Shown: positions 1 through 57,953 of the stretch, piece after piece
Numbering within the stretch: the stretch's first letter is position 1
How the letters are laid out: every line of letters starts with the position of its first letter
Origin: Leucoraja erinacea
Taxonomy: Eukaryota
Direction: 5' to 3'
Length of the DNA stretch: 64,000 nucleotides
NCBI RefSeq assembly: GCF_028641065.1
Contig: NC_073393.1
Coordinates: 28,830,001-28,894,000 of the forward strand
Program-made: the position numbers and the translations under genes
The notes under the pieces: model-generated
What the model saw: only the letters and a program-made list of their open reading frames with translations
What the model was told of the DNA's origin: nothing
The model's database searches: none

Positions 1-1671
1 GAGGGACAAGCAGAACTGGTGAGGTTACATACAAAGGATATCATAGAGAAATCTGAACATGAACCTTTGAATTTGTATCAAATATATTTACTAAAACCAA
101 AAATTATGGTGGATGTCGCATCATCATTGACTTAACTACATTGAATACTTTCGTTAAGTATATACACTTTCCAAAGGATACTTTATGGCAAGCATCGATA
201 TAAAAGATGCATACTAGTCAGTGCCTATTCATAAGGATCATCATAGATACCTAAAATTTACCTGGATGGGGCAACAATGGCAGGACAAATCGTTGCCTAA
301 TGATCTAACATCAGCCCCAAGACTGTTTACCAAGATATTAAAACCAGCCTTGGCAATATTAAGAAAACAAAAACATATTGTCATGGCATATCTTGATGAT
401 ATTTTGATAATAGGCAAAACCATGGAATGAGCTAATTCAGCAGTATTAGCTACTAGACATTTATTTGAAACCTTGGGTTTTGTCATACATCCAGATAAAT
501 CTAAGTTGACTCCATCCACAACTATGGACTATTGGGATTCACAATTAACTCAGTCCACATGTCTGTAACGTTGCCAAAAGAAAAATCAGCAGAATTGGCA
601 CAAACGTGTAACAAATTAATGGTTAACAATCGACCAACCATCCGACAAGTGGCAAGAGTAATTGGTAAATTGGTAGCAGCATTTCCAGCTACCCAGTTTG
701 GACCTTTGCATTATCAAAACTTACAAAGAGCAAAGGTGCAAGCGTTAAAATAACATGCAGGTCACTTTGACCAAACCATGAAATTGCCCATTGAAGCAAT
801 ATCAGAGTTACAATGGTGGATAGAGAACATTTGGCATAGTTCCAGTCCCATCATTATCAATAACCCAACGTTAACAATACAAACAGATGCCAGTGCTCAA
901 GGCTGGGGAGCAACTAATACCATATCCAGTACAGGTGGTAGATGGACTAATCTAGAATCATCGTTACTACAGACACTGGGCATAAATTATTTGGAAATGT
1001 TGGGTGTGTTCTATGGTTTAAAAGCATATTGTACAAATATGCACCATTTGCATATTCGTTTGCAGATTGACAATACCACAGTGGTGGCCTATATTAACCA
1101 TATGGGCGGGATAAAATTGATATCATGTGATAATTTGCTCAACACAATCTGGCAATGGTGTGTCGACAAACATATTTGGCTATCAGCAACTTACCTACCA
1201 GGTAAGCTAAGTACAGTGGCAGACACCAGGTCATGCAAGTTCAATGATAACATCGAATGGATGTGAAACCCCAAAGTATTTGCTGAAATTACAAAGCAAT
1301 ATGGAGCACCAGATATTGATCTCTTTGCGTCCCGACTGAATCACCAGGTACCGATGTATGTTGCTTGGGAACCAGACCCTGAGGCAGTGGCGATGGATGC
1401 ATTCGCGCTGAACTGGGGGAACTATTTTTTCTATGTTTTTCCCCCCTTCTGCCTCATCAGTCGGGTACTATGCAAAATACAGATGGACTCTGCTTCAGGC
1501 ATTTTGGTAGTACCTGACTGGCCTACACAGCCATGGTTCCCAGTGGTCCTTGACAGGGTCGTTGAAACACCAATGACCATTCCCAGCGGACCAGATCTAC
1601 TGATTCACCCTGTGTCAGGCGAAAGTCACCCATGCCATGACAGAATAAACCTACTGGGTTGCAGATTCTAA
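1..1671 (+). pseudogene. DIRS pol: reverse transcriptase + RNase H + adenine-methyltransferase-like (MT) domain, disrupted
   Basis: SAPRLFTK and YLDD (389-400); TDASAQGWG, INYLE, DNTT RNase H motifs (778-1266); IDLFASRLN and YVFPPF MT motifs (1267-1671). Premature stops at 428-430, 751-753, 1264-1266 plus frameshifts. Confidence 0.9.
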
Positions 1672-2646
1672 AAAGACCTTTGCTGGACCTGGGATTGTCA
1701 AACAGGACCATGGACACGATGACAGCATCTCACCGACTTTCCACCAAGAAACAATACCTCTCAAGTATAAGAAAATGGGAAACATACTGCTCGAGAACAG
1801 GGACAACCTACACATCAACCACCATAACAAATGTACTGGAGTTCCTGGCCAGCCGTCACCATGATGAAGGTCTGAGCTATAGCGCTATCAATAGTGCTAG
1901 AAGTACACTGTCAGCCTACCTTAGACACGCACCAGGACAACAGGCCATAGGGTCTCATCCGCTGGTGGCCAAATTAATGAGAGGGATCTTCAATTCAAAC
2001 CCCCCTAGACCTAGGTACACCAAGATCTGGGATGTCAGTGTTGTCCTGACATACCTAAGGGGATGGTCACCAGCCAGATCCCTCACTCTGGAACAGCTAA
2101 CCTTGAAAACGGCCATGCTGATGGCGTTAGTTTCAGCACAAAGGGTCCAGTCCCTTTACTTACTCAGACTGGACAATATGGTCATAACACCAGACCAAAT
2201 AACATTCACCATTAAGGAGCTGGTAAAACAGAGCAGACCAGGAACTTCAGGTCCTATTATGGAATTTCGGGCGTACCCACCTGACCCCCGTTTATGTGTC
2301 ATGACTCACCTTCTACTATACATCAACACAACCAAAGATTCCCGAGGGAGAGAAAAAGCACAATGGGGCAGCCACAAAAAACCACATGGTCGGGTGTCGA
2401 GTCAAACCAAAGTCTAGATGGCTCAAACAGGTACTGGGAGCTGCTGGAGTGGATACTGATATTTACACATCTCACTCCACCAGGGCAGCATCCACGTCGG
2501 CAGCTAAAAGAATGGACGTGCCATTAGACCACATCCTGGCAACAGCGGGGTGGTCCTTGGAAAGAACTTTTCAAACGTTCTACAACAAGCCATTAGCAGA
2601 ACCTGTTTTATTTGCAGAGAGAATTTTAGACTCTGCAAATATATAA
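1659..2646 (+). pseudogene. DIRS tyrosine recombinase, frameshifted near 2400
   Basis: SAQRVQ (catalytic R), HSTRAAS (HxxR), AGW and FQTFY (catalytic Y) split across ORFs 1659-2417 and 2386-2646. Confidence 0.92.
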
Positions 2647-3235
2647 TTTAAGTCCGGGGGAGCATTATTTTCTTTGTTATTGTTTTCAAATAAATACCAT
2701 TTTTGTTTTATAAACAGATTCATGTTTGATTACGATAACATACTTCCTCCCTTGGATGACTTCGGCAGCGAGTGAAGTATGAACTGTTACACGGTTTGAA
2801 ATCACAGAGCTGTAAAATCTTCACGTAGTCACTCACGTGACTCCGAAGTAAAATAGTAAGATTAAACGAGAACTTACCAGTTTGAAGTTTAATCTTTATT
2901 TTATGAGGAGTTACGATGAGGGATTACGTGCCCTCCGCTCCCACCCTCAATTATAGAGATCAACTGGTAACTTAGTTCTCTTTATCTTTACTATGTTTAT
3001 TTCAATTATTGTGTTGTTTCTATGATTCCACACCTCTGCTTTGAAGTATGTCGCGCATGCGTGCTGGACGGGGTCGTCACGTAATCCCTCATCGTAACTC
3101 CTCATAAAATAAAGATCAAACTTCAAACTGGTAAGTTCTCGTTTAATCTTACTATTTTGTGGTGTATTCGTGTAGATTTTTGTTTTGCATGCAATCAACT
3201 GGTTTAATGCACACACTCAAGCCATGTTTTACTTG

Positions 3236-3880
3236 TAACCATATAACCATGTAACAATTACAGCACGGAAACAGGCCATCTCGGCCCTACAAGTCCGTGC
3301 CGAACAAAATTTTTTTCCCCCTTAGTCCCACCTGCCTGCACTCATACCATAACCCTCCATTCCCTTCTCATCCATATGCCTATCCAATTTATTTTTAAAT
3401 GATACCAATGAACCTGCCTCCACCACTTCCACTGGAAGCTCATTCCACACCGCTACCACTCTCTGAGTAAAGAAGTTCCCCCTCATATTACCCCTAAACT
3501 TCTGTCCCTTAATTCTGAAGTCATGTCCTCTTGTTTGAATCTTCCCTATTCTCAAAGGGAAAATCTTGTCCACATCAACTCTGTCTATCCCTCTCATCAT
3601 TTTAAAGACCTCTATCAAGTCCCCCCTTAACCTTCTGCGCTCCAGAGAATAAAGACCTAACTTATTCAACCTATCTCTGTAACTTAGTTGTTGAAACCCA
3701 GGCAACATTCTAGTAAATCTCCTCTGTACTCTCTCTATTTTGTTGACATCCTTCCTATAATTGGGCGACCGAAATTGTACACCATACTCCAGATTTGGTC
3801 TCACCAATGCCTTGTACAATTTTAACATTACATCCCAGTTTCTATACTCAATGCTCTGATTTATAAAGGCTAGCATACCA
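3236..3880 (-). mobile_element. CR1 LINE 3' fragment (young, 5'-truncated)
   Basis: ORF 3322-3876: LYKALVRPNLEY...LERRRLRGDLIEVFK...FFTQRVV...WN (CR1 ORF2 C-terminus), followed by 3'UTR with short-repeat tail. Confidence 0.92.
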
Positions 3881-16039: not shown

Positions 16040-16844
16040 TTAGGTCTACTTCTGTAACCTGTGAACTTGTGAACAAGTGACATAAATGCTTTGAGGAGTC
16101 TGGGCTGAAACATGGCACAGTATATGTAGCCTCTGACTGGTCTTGTCACCATCTTATTTGAGTGTCCATCCCAGTTGAACAATAATGACTGCTAGGAAGG
16201 TTGGGGAATTAGTGATGATAATGCTATTGCACGCCAAGAAGAGGTGGAAATGGCTATTGCCTGGCACTTGTTGCTTGCCTGAGCCTGAATGTTGACTAGA
16301 AACACATGTGGCTTTCCTCCAGGCACCCCGCTTTCCTCCTACATCCCTAAGACATGCAGGTTTGTCTGTAAATTGCCCCTATTGTGTAAGAGGTGGAGGC
16401 GTAAGTGGATAACATGGAACTAGTGTGAACGGGTGATCGAAGGTCAGCGTGGACCCGGTGGCCCTAAGGGCCTGTTTCCATGCTGTATCTCTGAACTAAG
16501 CTAAACTAAACAATGACTACTAGTGCCAGATTTCACATAAGAGGAAACATCCTCTCGGCATCCACCTACTCAAGACCACTCAGGATCTTGGGTTTAGTTT
16601 ATTGTCATGCATACCGAGGTACAGTGAAGCTTTTGTTGCATGCTAACCTGCCTTATATGCTTCAATCAGTTGACTCTAATGTTCTAAACTCCAGGGGATA
16701 CAAGCTTAGTTTCCTTAACATTTCCTCATCACACACCTGCCCATTCCAGGAGTCGGTCTAATAAACCTTCTCTGCTTCCAACACGACAACATTCTTTCTT
16801 AAATAAAGAGACCAATACATTACATGATACTTCTGATCACTCGT

Positions 16845-17645
16845 AACAAGGACAGGGTCCTCCTTGTCCTCCCTTCCACCCCACCAGCCATTACACACAA
16901 CAGATAATCCTCCAACATTTTTGCCACCTCCAACGGGATCCCACAACTGGCTACATCTTCCCATCTCCTCCCCCTTAGGCTTTCCACAGAGACCGCTCCC
17001 TCTGTAACTCCCTGGCCAATTCGTCCCTTCCCATCCAAACCACCCCCTCCCTCGGTACTTTCCCTTGCAACCGCAGGAAATGCTCAAATTGTCGCTTTAC
17101 CTCCCCCCTCAACTCCATCCACGGACACAAGCAGTCTCTCCAGGTGAGGCAGAGGTTCACCTGCACCTCCTCCAACATCATCTATTGCATCTGCTGCTCT
17201 AGCTGTCAACTTCTCTACGTCGGTGAGACCAAGCGCAGGCTTGGCGCTCACTTTGCCCAACATCTCCGTTCGGTTCGCAATAACCAACCTGATCTCCCGG
17301 TGGCTCAGCACTTCAACTGCCCCTCCCATTCCGTATCCGACCTTCTCCATGGCCAGAGTGAGTCCCACCTGGGCAGTTTACACCCCAGCGGTGTGAACAT
17401 TGACCTCCAATTTCAGGTAGTCCTTGCTTTCTCCCTCCTTCCCCTCCCCTCCCCAGCTCTCCCACAGCCTACGGTCTCCACCTCTTCCTTTCTTCTTCCC
17501 GCCCCCACCCCACATCAGTCTGAAGAAGGATCTCGATCCGAAATGCCACCTATTCCTTTTCTCCATAGATGCTGTCTCACCCGCTGAGTTTCTCCAGCAT
17601 TTTTGTCTACCTTCGATTTTTCCAGCATTTGCAGTTCTTTCTTAA
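16845..17645 (+). mobile_element. Penelope-like element remnant: GIY-YIG endonuclease + 3' repeat with hammerhead motif
   Basis: FTCTSSNIIYCICCSSCQLLYVGETKRRL..F..H..VAQHFN (PLE GIY-YIG); downstream CTGAAGA-A-GGAT-CTCG-ATCC-GAAA at 17520-17543. Confidence 0.88.
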
Positions 17646-17714
17646 CTGATACTTCTGATAGTTGGGTTACAAGACCTGCTACAAGAATTCTGGACTATCC
17701 GGAGAGAGGCGTTA

Positions 17715-18165: not shown

Positions 18166-19781
18166 CAGTGGCTTGCAAAAGTTTTCATACCCCTTGAACT
18201 TTTCCACATTTTGTTATGTTACAACCACAAACGTAAATGTATTTTATTGGGATTTTATGTGATAGACCAACACAAAGTGGCGCATAATTGTGAAGTGGAA
18301 GGAAAATGATACATGGTTTTCAGATTTATTTACAAATAAAAAACTGAAAAGCATGGCATGCAAAGGTATTCAGCCCCCTTTACTCTGATATGCCTAAATA
18401 AAATCCAGTGCAACCAATTGCCTTCAGAAGTCACCTAATTAGTAAATAGTCCACTTGTGTGTAATCTAATCTCAGTATAAATACAGCTGTTCTGTGAAGG
18501 CCTCAGAGGTTTGTTAGAGAACATTAGTGAACAAACAGCATCTTGAAGCCCAAGGAACACACCAGACAGGCCAGGGATAAAGTTGTGGAGAAGTTTAAAG
18601 CATGGTTAGGTTATAAAAAAATATCCCAAGCTTTGAACATCTCACGGAGCACTGTTCAATCCATCATCCAAAAATGGAAAGAGTATGGCACAACTGCAAA
18701 CCTACCAAGACATGGCTGTCCACCTAAACTGACAGGTCGGGCAAGGAGAGCATTGATCAAAGAAGCCGCCAAGAGGCCCATGGTAACTCTGGAGGAGCTA
18801 CAGAGATCCACAGCTCAGGTGGGAGAATCTGTCCACAGGACAACTATTAGTTGTGCACTCCACAAATCGGGCCTTTATGGAAGAGTGGCAAGAAGAAAGC
18901 CATTGTTGAAAAAAAGCCATAAGAAGTCCCGTTTGCAGTTTGCCACAAGCCATGTGGGGGACACAGCAAACATGTGGAGGAAGGTGCTCTGGTCAGATGA
19001 GACCAAAATTGAAGTTTTTGGCCTAAATGCAAAACGCTATGTGTGGCGGAAAACTAACACTGCACATCACCCTGAACACACCATCCCCACTGTGAAACAT
19101 GGTGGTGGCAGCATCATGCTGTGGGGATGCTTTTCTTCAGCAGGGACAGGGAAGCTGGTCAGAGTTGATGGGAAGATGGATGGAGCCAAATACAGGGCAA
19201 TCTTGGAAGAAAACCTGTTAGAGTCTGCAAAAGACTTGAGACTGGGGCGGAGGTTCATCTTCCAGCAGGACAACGACCCTAAACATACAGCCAGAGCTAC
19301 AATGGAATGGTTTAGATCAAAGCATATCCATGTGTTAGAATGGCCCAGTCAAAGTCCAGACCTAAATCCAATTGAGAATCTCTGGCAAGACTTGAAAATT
19401 GCTGTTCACAGACACTCTCCATCCAATCTGACTGAGCTTGAGCTATTTTGCAAAGAAGAATGGGCAAACATTTCAGTCTCTAGATGTGCAAAGCTGGTAG
19501 AGACATACCCCAAAAAGACTTGCAGCTGTAATTGCAGCGAAAGGTGGTTCTACAAAGTATTGACTCAGGGGGGCTGAATACTTTTGCATGCCACACTTTT
19601 CAGTTTTTTATTTGTAAAAATATTTGAAAACCATGTATCATTTTCTTTCCACTTCACAATTATGCACCACTTTGTGTTGGTCTATCACATAAAATCCCAA
19701 TAAAATACATTTACGTTTGTGGTTGTAACGTGACAAAATGTGGAAAAGTTCAAGGGGTATGAAAACTTTTGCAAGCCACTA
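18166..19781 (+). mobile_element. Tc1/mariner DNA transposon, IR/DR type, Passport-like
   Basis: TA then CAGTGGCTTGCAAAAG at 18166; TIRs of about 214 bp (18166-18379 and about 19568-19781); internal transposase. Confidence 0.95.
18543..19563 (+). pseudogene. Tc1 DD34E transposase (start codon TTG; +1 A at about 19512-19516 displaces the last residues)
   Basis: WSDETK, FQQDNDPKH, WPSQSPDLNPIEN with exactly 34 residues between the second D and E. The shifted frame reads RLAAVIAAKGGSTKY-stop ending at 19563. Confidence 0.93.
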
Positions 19782-26439: not shown

Positions 26440-26648
26440 AAAACAACTGCAGATGCTGGACTCATGGATAGGGCAGATGTTGGTTTATACCGAAGATAGA
26501 CACAAAGTGCTGAACAATTCAGTGGATCAGGCAGCATCTCTGGAAGACATGGCGAGGCGACATTTCGGGTTGGGACCCTTCTTCAGTCTAAAGGGTCCCG
26601 AACTGAATCATCGCCTATCCCCGCCCTCCACAGAAGCTGTCTAACCTA
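26440..26648. mobile_element. Penelope-derived repeat with minus-strand hammerhead core (26559-26586) and partial inverted arm
   Basis: Reverse complement reads CTGAAGA-A-GGGT-CCCA-ACCC-GAAATGTC. Confidence 0.72.
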
Positions 26649-31944: not shown

Positions 31945-32950
31945 TAGTGAAAGGCCTTGATAGAGTGGATGTGGAAAGAATGTTTCCACAGGTGGGAGCG
32001 TCTAAGACCCGAGGGCACAGCCTCAGAATAAAAGGATGTACCTTTAGAAAGGAGACAAGGCGGATTTTTTTTAGTCAGAGGGTGTTGAATCTTGGAATTA
32101 ATTGCCACAGGCAGCTGTGAAGACCAAGTCTTGGGTATTTTTAAAGCGAAGATAGGCAGATTCTTAATTAGTAAGGGTGTCAGGGGTTATGGGGAGAAGG
32201 CAGGTGTAATGGGTATAGCTTGGACCCAATAGCAGCACAGAATCAGGCAGGTATAATTGGTAATGAAACTTATTACGATATTGTAACACAGGAATGGGTA
32301 CACCGTACTCACACAGAGGCGCAGGATTGAGCAAGGGTTCTGAAGAGGGGCAGGCAGGAGACGTAGTCGGGGTAGCGGAAGGTCCGGTAACCAGGAGATC
32401 CAACACACGATGCAAACAAACTAGCGAGGGACAGATGAAAGGAGAGTCAAAGCCAGGCAGGTAGTCGAGGTGCCATTGCAGGGATACACCAAACATCCCA
32501 GGAGAGAGACAGACAGAAACCAGGAGGTCGAGGACAGAAGGCTGAGGTGCTATCCGGGAAGACAACATGCCGGAATGGTCAGGGGCAGGCAGGTTTGAAT
32601 CCGTGTAGGCAGTCGGGAAATCGCTGGAGAGTTTTGCATGAATGCTGAGAACAATCTGGCACTGTGTGAACGGTGAGGAGAGTCTATATACCGGGTTAAT
32701 AGGTGATCAGAGGCAACTGAGTGCAACAGGTGAGGAGAGTTAGGCTGATGAGAGGGGAGTGGCAGGCAGGTGAGGAGAAGGAGGGACTGGTGGAAAAGTA
32801 CTGGGAGGTGAAGTGGATGAGAATGAGGAGAGGGCAGACTGTAACAGCAGGAGATTGGGGTTGAGAGGGAAAGATAGATCAGCCATGATTGAATGGCGGA
32901 GTAGACTCGCTGGACTACAGATACTGCTCTGTGGCTTATATATTTCCAGA
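31945..32950 (+). mobile_element. CR1 3' fragment interrupted by a solo LTR
   Basis: Host reads ggggagaaggcagg|agattggggttgagagggaaagatagatcagccatg across the insertion. Confidence 0.8.
32205..32846 (-). mobile_element. Solo LTR (642 bp), probably Ty3/Gypsy
   Basis: TGTAA...TAACA termini; 5-bp TSD GCAGG (32200-32204, 32847-32851). Orientation inferred from TATATA and degenerate AATAAG on the minus strand. Confidence 0.8.
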
Positions 32951-33399
32951 TCTCTTGTTTCTTTAAAAGTCGAGTCCAAACCATTCCAAACTCTCAGCTT
33001 TGCATATTCCACTCCATGATGAACTGTTGCACCAGAAATCTGCTAACGGGGCTAAATCACACATCTTGAGTAACATTTAAGAAAGTCAGCTGTTTGACCT
33101 ATTGAGAAATTTCTGGAAGACAACACAGGAAGACAACACTTTTAAAGAATACAGAACAATCCAAAGCCTTGTGTTTTTCAGTGAGCATGAAATGCTGACT
33201 ACTGCAAATTCTATATCAGGCTAGGGTTTGTTTTAAAAAAAAATTGCTGCTGCCTGAAGGTGAAGCACGTTCCAATTATGTGGTAACCTTCTTTAAAAGG
33301 TGTTCAAGAAGGAACTGCAGATGCTGGAATATCGAAGGTACACAAAATTGCTGGAGAAACTCAGTGGGTGCAGCAGCATCTATGGAGCGAAGAAAATAG

Positions 33400-33431
33400 G
33401 CGACGTTTCGGGCCGAAACCCTTCTTCAGAC
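33400..33431 (-). ncRNA. Minimal type-I hammerhead ribozyme motif (antisense twin)
   Basis: Exact reverse complement of the core at 33438-33465. Confidence 0.65.
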
Positions 33432-33435
33432 TGGA

Positions 33436-33467
33436 GTCTGAAGAAGGGTTTCGGCCCGAAACGTCGC
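33436..33467 (+). ncRNA. Minimal type-I hammerhead ribozyme motif
   Basis: CUGAAGA(33438-44)-A-GGGU/UUCG/GCCC-GAAAC-GUC; predicted cleavage after 33465. Stem I is only about 2 bp. Confidence 0.65.
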
Positions 33468-34054
33468 CTATTTTCTTCACTCCATAGATGCTGCTGCACC
33501 CGCTGAGTTTCTCCAGCAATTTTGTGTACCTTCTTTAAAAGGTGTTGCATTGTGCTTTGTTTCTTTTTGCAGGAATTTCTTTGTCTAGTGGACTTGGCCC
33601 TCAGTTCAGCTGTTATGATAAAACACGGAAAACATTCTGGTCAGCTGAAGGGATAGATGTAAAACTGAGTCAGCTACCCAATTATTTAGATGTGGCATTC
33701 CACTTGCGCAATGCCACCATGCAGCAAATGGGAAAGAGTTATGTACAAATGTAATATAACCCCAAATTTTTCGTAATATTCATTTGAATAGTATCTGCAA
33801 TTTTGACTGCGGGACTATTAGATTCCAGGTGTTTCATGAATGTTCTTTATAAAGTTGTCCTTATGAGACACAAACTCTACGTGACTCTAGACAATGACGC
33901 AATGGTTGACTGTTGGCCTCCATTTTGTTTAGGGGGAATTTGACATAGGCAATAAGTGCAAACCTTGCCTGTGGCACACGCGGTGGTGTGATAAAGAGGA
34001 GAGGGTTTGTTTAGACTCCTCAAGGGAAGTATACTCTGTGGCAACTGAGACTCA

Positions 34055-34353
34055 GTTTAGTTTGGAGATGCAGATACAGCGCAGAAACAGGCCTTTCGGC
34101 CCACTGAGTCCATGCCGACCAACGATCCCCGCACACTAACACTATCCTACACACACTAGGGACAATTTAACATTCATACCAAGCCAATTAACCTACACAC
34201 CTGGATGTCTTTGGAGTGTGGGAAGATCTCACAGAAAACCCATGCAGGACAAACTCTGTACTGACAGCACCCTTGGTTGTGATCGAATCTGGGTCTCCGG
34301 GCCTGCAAGTCATGTAAGGCAGCAACATTACTGTGGCGCCACCGTGCCGCCCC
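34055..34353 (-). mobile_element. V-SINE (HE1-like)
   Basis: Full family structure. Confidence 0.82.
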
Positions 34354-34837
34354 AATTGATGGTTCCTTTGTAGCTTTAAGAATTCGAATTCAGATACAAG
34401 GGCAAGGTATCGTTTGCCACTTCCAATATAGCACTGAGACCTGCGCTAACTTTCAGGTAGGTTATGAAACTGAGATCCTTCTTTCTGTCTTTGGAAGATT
34501 TTAGGTGCTGTTTATTATTTTCCAAGACTTTTGCTTTATCTCAATTGCTGAAATTCTCAGGTAAGGTTTAACACAAGTTAAAACCATGGTATGTAGGAAA
34601 GAAATGAAGATAGATGCTGGTTATACACCAAAGATAGACAACAAAAATGCTGGAGTAACTAAGTGGGACAGGCAGCATCTCTGAAGGGAAGGAATTTATA
34701 GTTTTATTAAGTCTTTGCTTCCTGTGGCATCTTTTTATTTTCTGTACCTCAGCATTAGGGGATAGAGATGAATAGCAGATTCAAATCATCAGCAAACTAA
34801 TAAAGTTTGTAACAGACATACAATTTTTCTCTAATAG

Positions 34838-49609: not shown

Positions 49610-49746
49610 ACAAAATGTTTAAGAAGGAACTGCAGATGCTGGAAAATCGAAGGAAGACAAAAATGCTGGAGAAACTCAGTGGGTTAGGCAGCATCTATGG
49701 AGCGAAGGAAATAGGCAGTGTTTCGGGTCGATACCCTTCTTCAGAC
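49610..49746 (-). mobile_element. Penelope-derived repeat with hammerhead core
   Basis: Reverse complement GTCTGAAGAAGGGTATCGACCCGAAACAC; close to the left arm of 33301-33533. Confidence 0.8.
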
Positions 49747-53920: not shown

Positions 53921-54083
53921 TACACAACATGGTATTAGAACCATGTATCACCATCCCGAATAGACCAGATTTATTGGTTCATCCCGTAACAAGGAATAGC
54001 CACCCATGCCATAACTATATGAATTTATTAATTTGTAGAGTCAAAAAATACCTCTACTACAGCTGGGACTGACGGACCGAACA

Positions 54084-54986
54084 GTGAACATGATTTCGGC
54101 GGCCCACAGACAGTCCACCAAAAAACAGTATCTGGTCTATATCAGGAAATGGGAGATGTATTGTCACAGAAACAGCATCACCTACAGATTAATGAACATC
54201 TCGTCTGTTCTGGAATTCCTGGCAGGCCTCCATTATGATGAGGGGCTCAGTTATAGTGCCATCAACTGCGCCAGAAGTGCCCTATCAACTTATCTATGGC
54301 AAGGAACAGAGCGTCATTCTGTTGGGACTCACCCCCTGGTAACAAAACTTATGAGGGGAATTTTTAATACCAATCCCCCAAGAACCAGGTACTCTCAAAT
54401 ATGGGATGTATGTATTGTCCTGACTATGCTCAGGAATTGGTCTCCATCAACAGCTCTGTCCCTACATAGACTGACATAAAAAACATTCATGCTAATGGCT
54501 TTGGTCACAGCACAAAGGGTACAGTCGTTACATAAATTAAGACTGGACAACATGACTTCTTCATCTGGAAATATTACGTTTCATATTTATGAATTAGTTA
54601 AGCAGAACAGACAGGGATCAGCAGGCCTCAATATAGAATTTAGGTCTTACCCAACAGATGATCGTCTCTGTATAGTAAGACATTTGTTGTTATACATGGA
54701 GAACATGAAAATCATCAGAGGCAATGAGAAGGCACTTTTAATCAGCCACAAGCAACCACACAAAAAAGTGAAGGTCCAGACCATCTCAAGATGGCTGAAA
54801 CAGGTTCTAATACAGGCTGGGGTGGATACTAATATTTTAAAATCTCATTCCACCAGGACTGCAGCTCATTGGCAGCTATGCAGTTGGATGTACCAATGGA
54901 CCAAATGGTCAGGGGAAAAAAAACATTCCAACTATTTTATCATAAACCAGTCATTAAACCTGGAACGTTTGCAGAAACAATTTTAA
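54084..54986 (+). pseudogene. DIRS tyrosine recombinase with in-frame stop (54477-54479) and C-terminal frameshift
   Basis: STKKQYL, GLSYSAINCARSALS, HPLVTKLMRGIFN, TAQRVQ, ISRWLK, HSTR; homologous to 1659-2646. Confidence 0.9.
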
Positions 54987-56100
54987 GTTCTGTAATTTAA
55001 TTTACCCCATAAATAGGGGCTATAATTTGGTGTTAATAAATTTTCATGGATTTCAATGTCGGATTCATGTCTAAATTATGTTGACACAATTCCTCCCACA
55101 GTCATTAAGGCAGATGTGATGCATGGACTCGTTTCCACGGCATGAAATCTCAGAGCTTTGAAATCTTCACGTAGTCACTCACTTGACTCCGAAGTAAAAT
55201 AGTAAGATTAAACGCGAACTTACCAGTTCGAAGTTTGATCGTTATTTTATGAGGAGTACGTTGAGGGAATACGTGCCCTCCGCTCCCACCCATGATCATA
55301 TACTCAACTGGTATTTCTTCTCTAATCTTACTATGTTCAGTCATTACAGTTATCTGTGATTTCACACTGCTGCTTTGAAGAATGACATGCATGGGTCCTG
55401 GTGGGGTTCTTCACATATTCCCTCAACGTACTCCTCATAAAATAACGATCAAACTTCAAACTGGTAAGTTCTCGTTTTATTAACTCCCCAGAGTAGTTTC
55501 AGGGATAAATATAGTGTCCTTATTTAAAAAAGGATGCTAAAAGTATCGAAAATCTGAATTAGTCCGTTGCCAAAGACAATAGGTTTCCATCAACTACGGG
55601 CAGATGTCAGCCACATTGATGTGGTTCCATTGGTAAAGGAATGTATAAAAAAAAGCAAAGAGAATGAACGACAGTTTCAAAAGAAAAGAAAATATTGCAT
55701 AACATGGTAAAAATCTGTTGGGTTTCAAACCAAATCTTGATCTGTGAAGGTCATGAGCTGGTCACATGATACACACCAAGCATATATCAGGAAAAATCTG
55801 TGGGACTGGGGGACATTTCCAATATGCACATTACTTCCCTAAACTTAAAAAAAAATCAAACAGCTGCTGTTTCTCATAGCCACATAACCAAATAGCTTGT
55901 TATGCAGTTGGTGTCGCAAGAAGGTTCATTGCCCATGAATTGTTGAAAGTTACTTTGCAAACTTCAGCTCAAGTGTTATCGTGCAGGTGCAGCAATTCAC
56001 AATAAGGTCTAGTGGTTTTTTTTAAAATTTCCAATTTAGTGGCATAATCCTTTAGTTGTTGAAAGATTATTTTTGACAAGCAGTGGATCTTTATATTGCT

Positions 56101-56402: not shown

Positions 56403-57065
56403 ACTGTAAACTTTATTTAAAAGTTGCTTGTATTTCGAAAGATTTAATGCAGATCTTACCGTGACATACTGTAATTAATCATGAGCAGTTGATTGTGCGT
56501 TAATCAGGATTGCGGATTGTACAATCATTATGCCAGCATGCAAAGATTTACAAATCCAAACTATGTTCTGAAGCTAAAATGAGGGTATTGTGTTAGTGAG
56601 GACAATGAGGTGTCTTGGAATATTGCCCTTCACAAATACAGATGGCAGATGGCAGAAAACTGATAGAAAAATCAGAAAATGCTGGAAGAACTCGGCAGGT
56701 CAGGAAATATCCATGAAAGAAAAATGATTATGATTTCAGGTCTGGGAACCTTCATTCGATTTGAGTTAGGATTTACCTCAGCTCAGCCTGTTGCTCAGTT
56801 GGAAAGGTAGACCAGTGTGAAAGGTGTTATTGGCGTCAAAGGCAGATTGGAAAAAAGGTCAATTTTGGAGGGAGAAAACACAAGACATTGCAGATGCTGG
56901 AATCATGAGCGAAAAAATCAAGGGCTGGAGGAATTCAATTGGTCAGGCAACATCTGTGGAGGGAAATGGACAGATGATGTTTCAGCTCAGGAATCTTCAT
57001 CACATCATCTATCCATTTCCCTTCACCAGATGTTGCCCTGATCCACTGAATTCCTCAGGCAGTTT

Positions 57066-57953
57066 CAAGAGAGTCAAGAGTCAAGAGTCAAGAGTCAATT
57101 TAATTGTCATTTGGACCCCTGGAGGTCCAAACGAAATGCCGTTTCTGCAGCCATACATTACACCAAATAGACCCCAGACACAACATAATTACATTTTACA
57201 TAAACATCCATCACATAGCTGTGATGGAAGGCCAAAAAACCTTATCTCTCCACTGCACTCTCCCCCCCCCCCCCCCCCCCCCCCCCGATGTCAGTCAGAG
57301 TCAAAGTCAAAGCCCCCGGCTGGCGATGGCGATTGTCCCGCGGCCATTGAAGCCACGCCGGGTGGTGCGAGGTGCACACCGGGTCTTGGTGTTGGAGCCC
57401 CCGGGAAAATCCCGCGGCCATTCCAGCCGCGCGGGGCAGTGGTGTCAGGCCCCGCTCCAGGAGCTCTTCAACCCCGCAACTCGGGCGGGAGAATTCGCCG
57501 TTGCAGGAGCCCCGAAAAGCGGTCTCCCTCCAGGGATCCGCGGGCTCCCGGTGCCGCCGTCCGCAGACCCGCAGTAGCAGCCTCCGACTCAGCAGCAGCA
57601 GCGGCATCGGCAGCAGCAGCAGCGCTCCTCCACCGCTCCACCCGCTCCGGACTCGGCCAGCCCCGCGACGGCAACGGTGAGTAGCACGAGAGTCCCCGGC
57701 TTCTTCCTGTTGGAGGCCGCTCCTCGTTGCGGCCCCAACGACAACGGAAACCCGACGAGAAAAGGTCGGGTCTCCCGTGCAGGGAGAGATTTAAAAAGTT
57801 CCCCCTCCCTCCCCCCCCACCCCACCCCCACCCCCCCACACACACACCCCAACAAAAAAATAACAAAAACTACATTAAAACACAGACAGAAAATAATAAA
57901 AACGCGGACAGACTGCAGAGGCCGCTGCTGGCCAGAGCCGCGCCGCCCACCGG
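57066..57953 (-). mobile_element. CpG-rich non-autonomous non-LTR retroposon with Rex1/L2-type 3' tail
   Basis: (TCAAGAG)n tail at 57066-57097; hairpin tttggacc-cctgga-ggtccaaa; GC-rich 5' part; 5-bp TSD AGTTT (57061-57065, 57954-57958). Confidence 0.75.

Follow-up and report, generated by a model that had tools for sequence, protein, structure and literature searches.

The palindrome at 33286-33546 of the window, the whole 64,000-nucleotide stretch of Leucoraja erinacea DNA that was analysed, is almost certainly an insertion of an endonuclease-bearing Penelope-like retrotransposon (PLE). Identity and origin taken jointly, we consider it very probable that the palindrome is a PLE insertion that was formed at the moment of insertion. 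It is a single, young, non-coding insertion that has since been decaying neutrally, with one CpG transition in each arm, and such a head-to-head stub is a known PLE insertion pattern, not a new gene-silencing switch. The palindrome is thus ordinary retroelement debris; its value is that of a clean, young record of PLE integration, the later steps of which are still unvalidated (PMC11167929).

Architecture of the palindrome and its parent element

The arms, at 33334-33432 and 33435-33533, are reverse complements with 97 of 99 bases matched and a GG spacer, in agreement with a sequence-only reading of this DNA, which had described a near-perfect 99-bp palindrome with two mismatches and a 2-nt spacer. 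The mismatches (n = 2) lie at 33365 and 33388, and both are CpG transitions. The two arms have the same base, a minority one in the family, at the mirror positions 33393 and 33474; combined with the nature of the two mismatches, this indicates that the arms were probably identical at insertion and derived from one template. As RNA, the palindrome folds with -206 kcal/mol on either strand (z = -27.7), and none of 200 shuffles folds as well.

That reading was right about the arms and the 19-mers flanking them, but not about a symmetric extent of the element: the left arm is about 133 nt long vs. 99 nt for the right, extending some 30 nt further, into the left 19-mer. By blastn with the extended left arm, the element takes in 33305-33333 as well as 4-5 nt of the left 19-mer, a stretch that the right arm lacks, and the matches to other copies (17516-17643, 84%; 49746-49616, 89%) reach about 33301. 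Loose ends of family RNA reads pile up before 33300 (663), 33301 (973), and 33306 (485), and the element end is therefore placed 4-5 nt inside the left 19-mer. The left arm (33301-33433, minus strand) is accordingly a complete PLE 3' end, including a tail of about 30 nt (33305-33333, minus strand) found on this arm alone; its 5' truncation falls 4 nt before the hammerhead core. The right arm (33435-33533, plus strand), a tail-less 3' end, is cut off on the 5' side 3 nt before the core. At the head-to-head junction (33433-33434), comparison with the copy at 17520 suggests that 33433, which matches the family, belongs to the left arm, and that 33434 is a single base that was substituted or added without a template. 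Beyond 33433, 810 RNA reads from other copies run on into G-rich sequence complementary to the upstream UTR.

The flanking 19-bp target-site duplication has its left copy at 33286-33304 and its right copy at 33528-33546 (both plus strand). The 19-mer occurs only at these two places when both strands of the window are searched, cannot be extended, and is the sole exact 19-mer direct repeat of the window at a spacing of 100-330 nt, in a scan that left out 19-mers with fewer than three different letters. The microhomology to the element ends that had been proposed along with the duplication was also found. The last 4-5 nt of the left copy match the long, tailed 3' end of the element, with the alignment of this region to the copy at 49744 extending to 33301; the last 6 nt of the right arm (33528-33533, plus strand) are the first 6 nt of the right copy. 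The 6-nt match has a chance probability of 2e-4 at a fixed register and 2e-3 over ten registers, and a 4-nt match on the left 0.005 and 0.05. The duplication of 19 bp (8-9 bp minus the microhomologies) compares with 8-10 bp in insertions of endonuclease-bearing (EN+) PLEs. Its first 16 nt (33286-33301) form an imperfect inverted repeat, two 5-bp arms with 6 AT-rich nt between them, and would make a fitting target for a dimeric endonuclease; this is a single case.

The parent element can be read from a related, 5'-truncated PLE at 16838-17646 (plus strand), which consists of decayed GIY-YIG coding sequence, a pyrimidine-rich UTR, a hammerhead, and a tail, between exact copies of a 13-bp duplication (16825-16837 and 17647-17659). 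Its decayed frame (16979-17587) holds a CX4CX2C linker followed by a GIY-YIG domain, and runs into the same hammerhead-bearing end as the palindrome. The top ESM Atlas matches of this frame (0.96-0.97) are clusters with GIY-YIG on 18-27% of their members, and the Pfam GIY-YIG match (E = 0.0027) lies below the curated cut-off. Because the same end terminates this remnant within the 13-bp duplication, with the match to the arm lying directly behind the decayed frame as at the 3' end of an EN+ PLE, we assign the arms to the 3' end of a PLE that carries this endonuclease and has the hammerhead on its sense strand. Neither a reverse transcriptase of the palindrome family nor a full-length copy was found in the 64-kb window. 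A Zn-finger-like CX2-5CxxC linker before the endonuclease is a motif of Neptune elements, which CX4CX2C fits, and Nematis is alike in kind (PMC8557442); the source element was probably of Neptune type. The PLE copy at 16825-17659 (about 810 nt) has no inverted arm that we could see, and the family thus also inserts without inversion. For the solo copy at 49744, a 9-mer considered as a duplication was not accepted, because it lies outside the copy, some 120 nt from its apparent 5' end.

Published PLE insertions show an inverted 5'-truncated copy, a short target-site duplication, and a tail of 30-40 bp at one of the two ends (PMC8557442, PMC3846280, PMC8969392), and very short 5'-truncated insertions with a median of 128 bp are also on record (PMC9977147). 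The inverted 5'-truncated copy is present here, and the tail is at one end only, at the focal site as in all nine head-to-head pairs of the window. A PLE origin with such a copy had already been proposed, and the GIY-YIG remnant ending at 17646 bears it out; the one-sided tail, a diagnostic PLE signature, had been missed. A close parallel is Pen2a of Adineta, which shares the head-to-head inverted 5'-truncated copy, the duplication, and the near-palindromic junction (PMC3846280; PMC8557442). Its tail is 31 bp (30-40 bp in general) vs. about 30 nt here, at one end only, and the palindrome differs in that both copies are only about 100-130 nt and leave no ORF between them. Animal non-LTR retrozymes (bioRxiv 10.64898/2026.07.22.740005) are likewise non-coding, with a type I hammerhead and an origin from PLE pseudo-LTRs; they form head-to-tail tandem arrays, in contrast to the single head-to-head pair seen here, and this assignment was rejected. 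The open-licence literature, supplements aside (these may hold similar insertions), yielded no paper on such stubs in cartilaginous fishes, and among its titles none on a PLE hairpin self-silencing switch or on PLEs in skates.

Nine head-to-head pairs and the proposed mechanism of insertion

Besides the focal palindrome, the window contains the seven inverted layouts named earlier (11661, 12931, 26440, 27430, 34838, 39203, and 39740), all of them present with arm identities of 71-82%, and a ninth pair at about 56880-57075; the pairs and their outer ends were selected visually. The ninth pair, spanning 56858-57101 and referred to as 57000, has a tailed left arm, a right arm that starts near the predicted cleavage site, a candidate 8-bp duplication, and arms 91% alike over 53 nt. 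Exactly one arm carries the tail motif in each of the nine pairs (0.002 under independent 50% choice), in a search that allowed up to four substitutions and had a background of 166/5000. In pair 26590 a nested piece places the matched tail further out; the left arm of this pair (26440-26500) has two successive tail-like segments, which may be a nested or duplicated end. The candidate duplications, taken at the outer ends, score 19, 14, 9, 9, 8, 8, 8, 7, and 5, with background fractions among 3000 random pairs of 0, 0.0003, 0.012, 0.012, 0.047 (three times), 0.12, and 0.77. Seven of the nine pairs thus fall below 5% background and four at or below 1.2%; the outer-end search gave no duplication above background for pairs 13030 and 39840.

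No two of the nine pairs share a centre. The cores are separated by 8, 15, 17, 21, about 27 (with the left core positioned by eye), and 173 nt, and three pairs are cut inside a core, and in 8/9 pairs the centre clusters at the 5' edge of the hammerhead, which is partly an ascertainment of short pairs. Family contigs from relatives (three organisms) agree: among the 15 joints listed of 668, 14 run left-to-right at different coordinates and the remaining one comes from outside the element; the short sides of these joints are 18-27 nt, and chance joins may be included. The proposal that centres differ therefore holds for the window pairs and for the relatives' joints among the 15 listed. Within- vs. 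between-pair identity is too decayed in the older pairs to inform.

Given the PLE identity, we regard priming from both target strands as fairly probable. The GIY-YIG endonuclease would make staggered nicks, 19 nt apart, in the AT-rich target, and each freed 3' end would pair with 4-6 nt of the element RNA and prime reverse transcription, one from the outer (tail) site and the other from an inner site some 30 nt upstream. The two copies would then stop 3-4 nt upstream of the core, at the hammerhead 5' edge, and be joined by repair. In L1 twin priming, too, both target strands prime, giving an inversion within the target-site duplication. It yields non-overlapping inverted segments; unlike these, the arms of the palindrome copy the same segment twice.

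Biochemical work on a PLE protein, Poseidon PAc of Anolis, offers a model for these steps: the protein, a predicted dimer, cuts and extends both target strands, with uncleaved RNA as its substrate and with the tail delimited by two start sites (Frangieh et al., 2024, PMC11167929). The AT-rich target, the two tail-delimiting starts, and an uncleaved template are shared with the mechanism that we infer here. PAc, however, starts at RNA sites that are not homologous to the cut DNA and has no strand preference for its start sites (PMC11167929); the focal insertion, with matches of 6 nt and 4-5 nt, and the one-tail rule of the window differ in this, which counts against dual priming as seen in vitro. 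The linker of the palindrome family, Neptune- or Nematis-like, is also unlike that of PAc.

A different route would make the mirror arm of the same PLE insertion by self-priming: one strand would snap back at the hammerhead 5' edge, copy itself, and be joined to the target via the 6-nt microhomology. This competes with the dual-priming step and not with the identity of the element. Junction palindromes have been attributed to self-priming (Arkhipova et al., 2013; PMC3846280), and at the focal site the near-zero spacer, the identical arms, and the shorter second arm all favour it; fold-back explains equally well that the end points of the two arms differ by no more than 1 nt. Two observations speak against it. 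In most pairs the tail-less arms end in the same T-rich tract (by eye), as a fixed start site predicts. Fold-back of a tailed first strand would also not be expected to leave the tail-less arm with more 5' sequence than its tailed partner, as is seen in pairs 39400 and 13030. For pair 39400, the spacer aligned to the upstream UTR in the tail-less orientation is significant with two of four reference UTRs (3/300 and 2/300 shuffles), the other two giving 45/300 and 95/300. We hence consider fold-back rather unlikely, and the family itself could separate dual priming from self-priming, since both junctions, the centre, and an element-free relative can be read.

Dual priming also allows a broader, more tentative proposal, which we hold as a possibility and do not expect to be true outright: that the stubs record an obligatory asymmetric double priming, in which one RNP uses two target 3' ends and two start sites, leaving one tail at each insertion and at no time two or none, with 4-6 nt of pairing and with template or polymerase ending at the hammerhead 5' edge. 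If so, the hammerhead would serve as a structural boundary or RNA-dimerisation module and not as a nuclease, and PLE integration could be tested from genomes alone, given thousands of such stubs in cartilaginous fishes.

It is improbable that the palindrome is instead a non-autonomous unit, moved whole by the PLE machinery with a fixed centre. Such a unit would account for certain joints of high depth in relatives, 33421>33480 at 3505.8 in X6 (flanks about 8-10) and 33353>33489 at 816.7 in X10 (flanks 36), but neither is the focal centre. The centres of the nine window pairs, moreover, are all different, and the focal centre is absent among the 15 of 668 joints listed, where a contig running straight through would not count as a joint. 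Together with 33390>33488 (X10), these joints reach depths of about 800-3500 vs. 8-36 for single-copy flanks; they may be other head-to-head centres amplified as units in relatives, contig depth not being copy number.

Hammerhead cores and RNA evidence

As had been claimed, there is one hammerhead per strand: a minimal core at 33402-33429 (minus strand; C3 at 33429, predicted cut after 33402) and another at 33438-33465 (plus strand; C3 at 33438, predicted cut after 33465), 8 nt apart on opposite strands. Rfam at gathering scores gave no matches in the whole window, and the call rests on the published description of minimal hammerheads (min-HHR; PMC4209133), from which the features were taken. 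Core boxes and a GUC triplet are present in each arm, A9 is followed by an extra A, helix II is 4 bp long with G10.1-C11.1 as its closing pair, and the CG at 15.2-16.2 is palindromic, leaving helix III without a loop. The strict pattern (CUGANGA and GAAA, NUH, extra base, G10.1-C11.1, palindromic 15.2-16.2) is found in both focal arms; of the 26 arms and solo copies examined, 6 show it. The core boxes, the extra base between 9 and 10.1, the G10.1-C11.1 pair, and the loopless palindromic 15.2-16.2 are those of the min-HHR, while the 4-bp helix II, the 2-bp helix I with its wobble, and the closeness of the cores set these predicted ribozymes apart (PMC4209133). Helix I, read from the sequence, has only the pairs U-G and G-C vs. 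about 4-5 bp in the min-HHR criterion; a D. virilis variant also has a helix I of 2 bp (PMC4209133). Pairs of min-HHRs on opposite strands, 100-700 bp apart, have been noted previously (PMC4209133).

A function in self-silencing had been suggested on the ground that a transcript of either strand would mask its ribozymes in a hairpin and yield endo-siRNAs. As a selected switch that silences the family, this is very improbable. The masking itself is borne out by the predicted fold: the full hairpin, at its computed energy on either strand, abolishes helix II (P of the closing pair 2e-20), but in a single arm the pair is already at 0.002, and the hairpin thus masks a hammerhead fold that was disfavoured to begin with. 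An intermolecular 4-bp helix III contributes only -3.1 kcal/mol (computed). A lone min-HHR monomer is in any case inactive in vitro, with dimers showing low cleavage (Cervera and de la Pena, 2014, PMC4209133), and no pile-up of molecule ends was seen at the predicted cleavage site in fragmented poly(A) libraries, which would hide one. We infer that the hammerheads are passengers from the pseudo-LTR of the element.

In favour of a switch, poly(A) reads contain much sequence of the family, which covers the arms at a depth of about 900-2000, equally in both directions. The locus itself is near-unread, however: the unique flanks have a depth of 0-1.8 in X23 (one poly(A) library of unspecified tissue, 5% read, 1934 million letters). 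There, 97% of the aligned reads run on unlike the locus, only 180/15294 being at least 99% alike, and so the arm reads stem from other copies. A candidate host exon at about 33572-33752 was rejected, with no Pfam match and zero RNA depth. PLEs are small-RNA targets in rotifers, but those small RNAs are piRNA-like and not hairpin siRNAs (PMC3846280). The arms also decay by CpG loss, the focal mismatches included, with older pairs down to 71-82% identity (pair 57000 the exception noted above), which argues against a selected hairpin. Silencing is possible as a side effect.

Insertion state in relatives and other elements of the window

Reads of relatives and RNA were compared over 32880-34620 in four runs. 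Organism D has a 1017-nt contig (depth 36) that covers 32887-33305 and 33589-34100 with 85 letters between them, vs. 283 in the window, and as the 242-nt element cannot fit in 85 bridging letters, D is without it. The proposed empty-site check is thereby answered for absence of the element, though not for a clean reversal, for which about 42 letters are predicted (lengths were compared, not letters); a separate indel of about 43 nt near 33589 would account for the excess. Alignments stop at 33588/33589 in organisms C and D, not in B, and the indel is probably common to A and B. In organism B, an ungapped contig covers 33509-34100 with 9 differences in 592 and passes through the right junction, which suggests that B shares the insertion, with only 25 letters on the element side, under the 31-letter rule. 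The contigs of organism C break on both sides of the element and give no reading of its insertion state. Divergence from D is 13 differences in 417 and 25 in about 512, and from B about 1-1.5%. The insertion thus probably took place after the split from D and before the split from B, a timing that fits two arm differences, both CpG transitions, and its presence in A and B and absence in D make it a possible phylogenetic marker.

Near-perfect palindromes are also a known long-read artefact, but a fold-back chimera of the assembly is barely credible here, given the two CpG mismatches, the asymmetric arms, the target duplication, the eight older pairs, and the 25 element-side letters in the ungapped contig of organism B.

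The window also holds LINE-like, Tc1 (Pfam), and tyrosine-recombinase remnants. A Tc1/Sleeping Beauty-like transposon at 18167-19780 has an open transposase frame of 348 aa and 219-nt inverted repeats 94% alike. Tyrosine-recombinase fragments, which we take to be DIRS-like, lie at 754-2417 and 54039-54986, with weak phage-integrase SAM-domain matches for 1641-2414. Inverted repeats at 2850-3158 (94 nt, 93%) and 55207-55480 (69 nt, 94%), unrelated to the palindrome family by blastn, are possibly MITEs.
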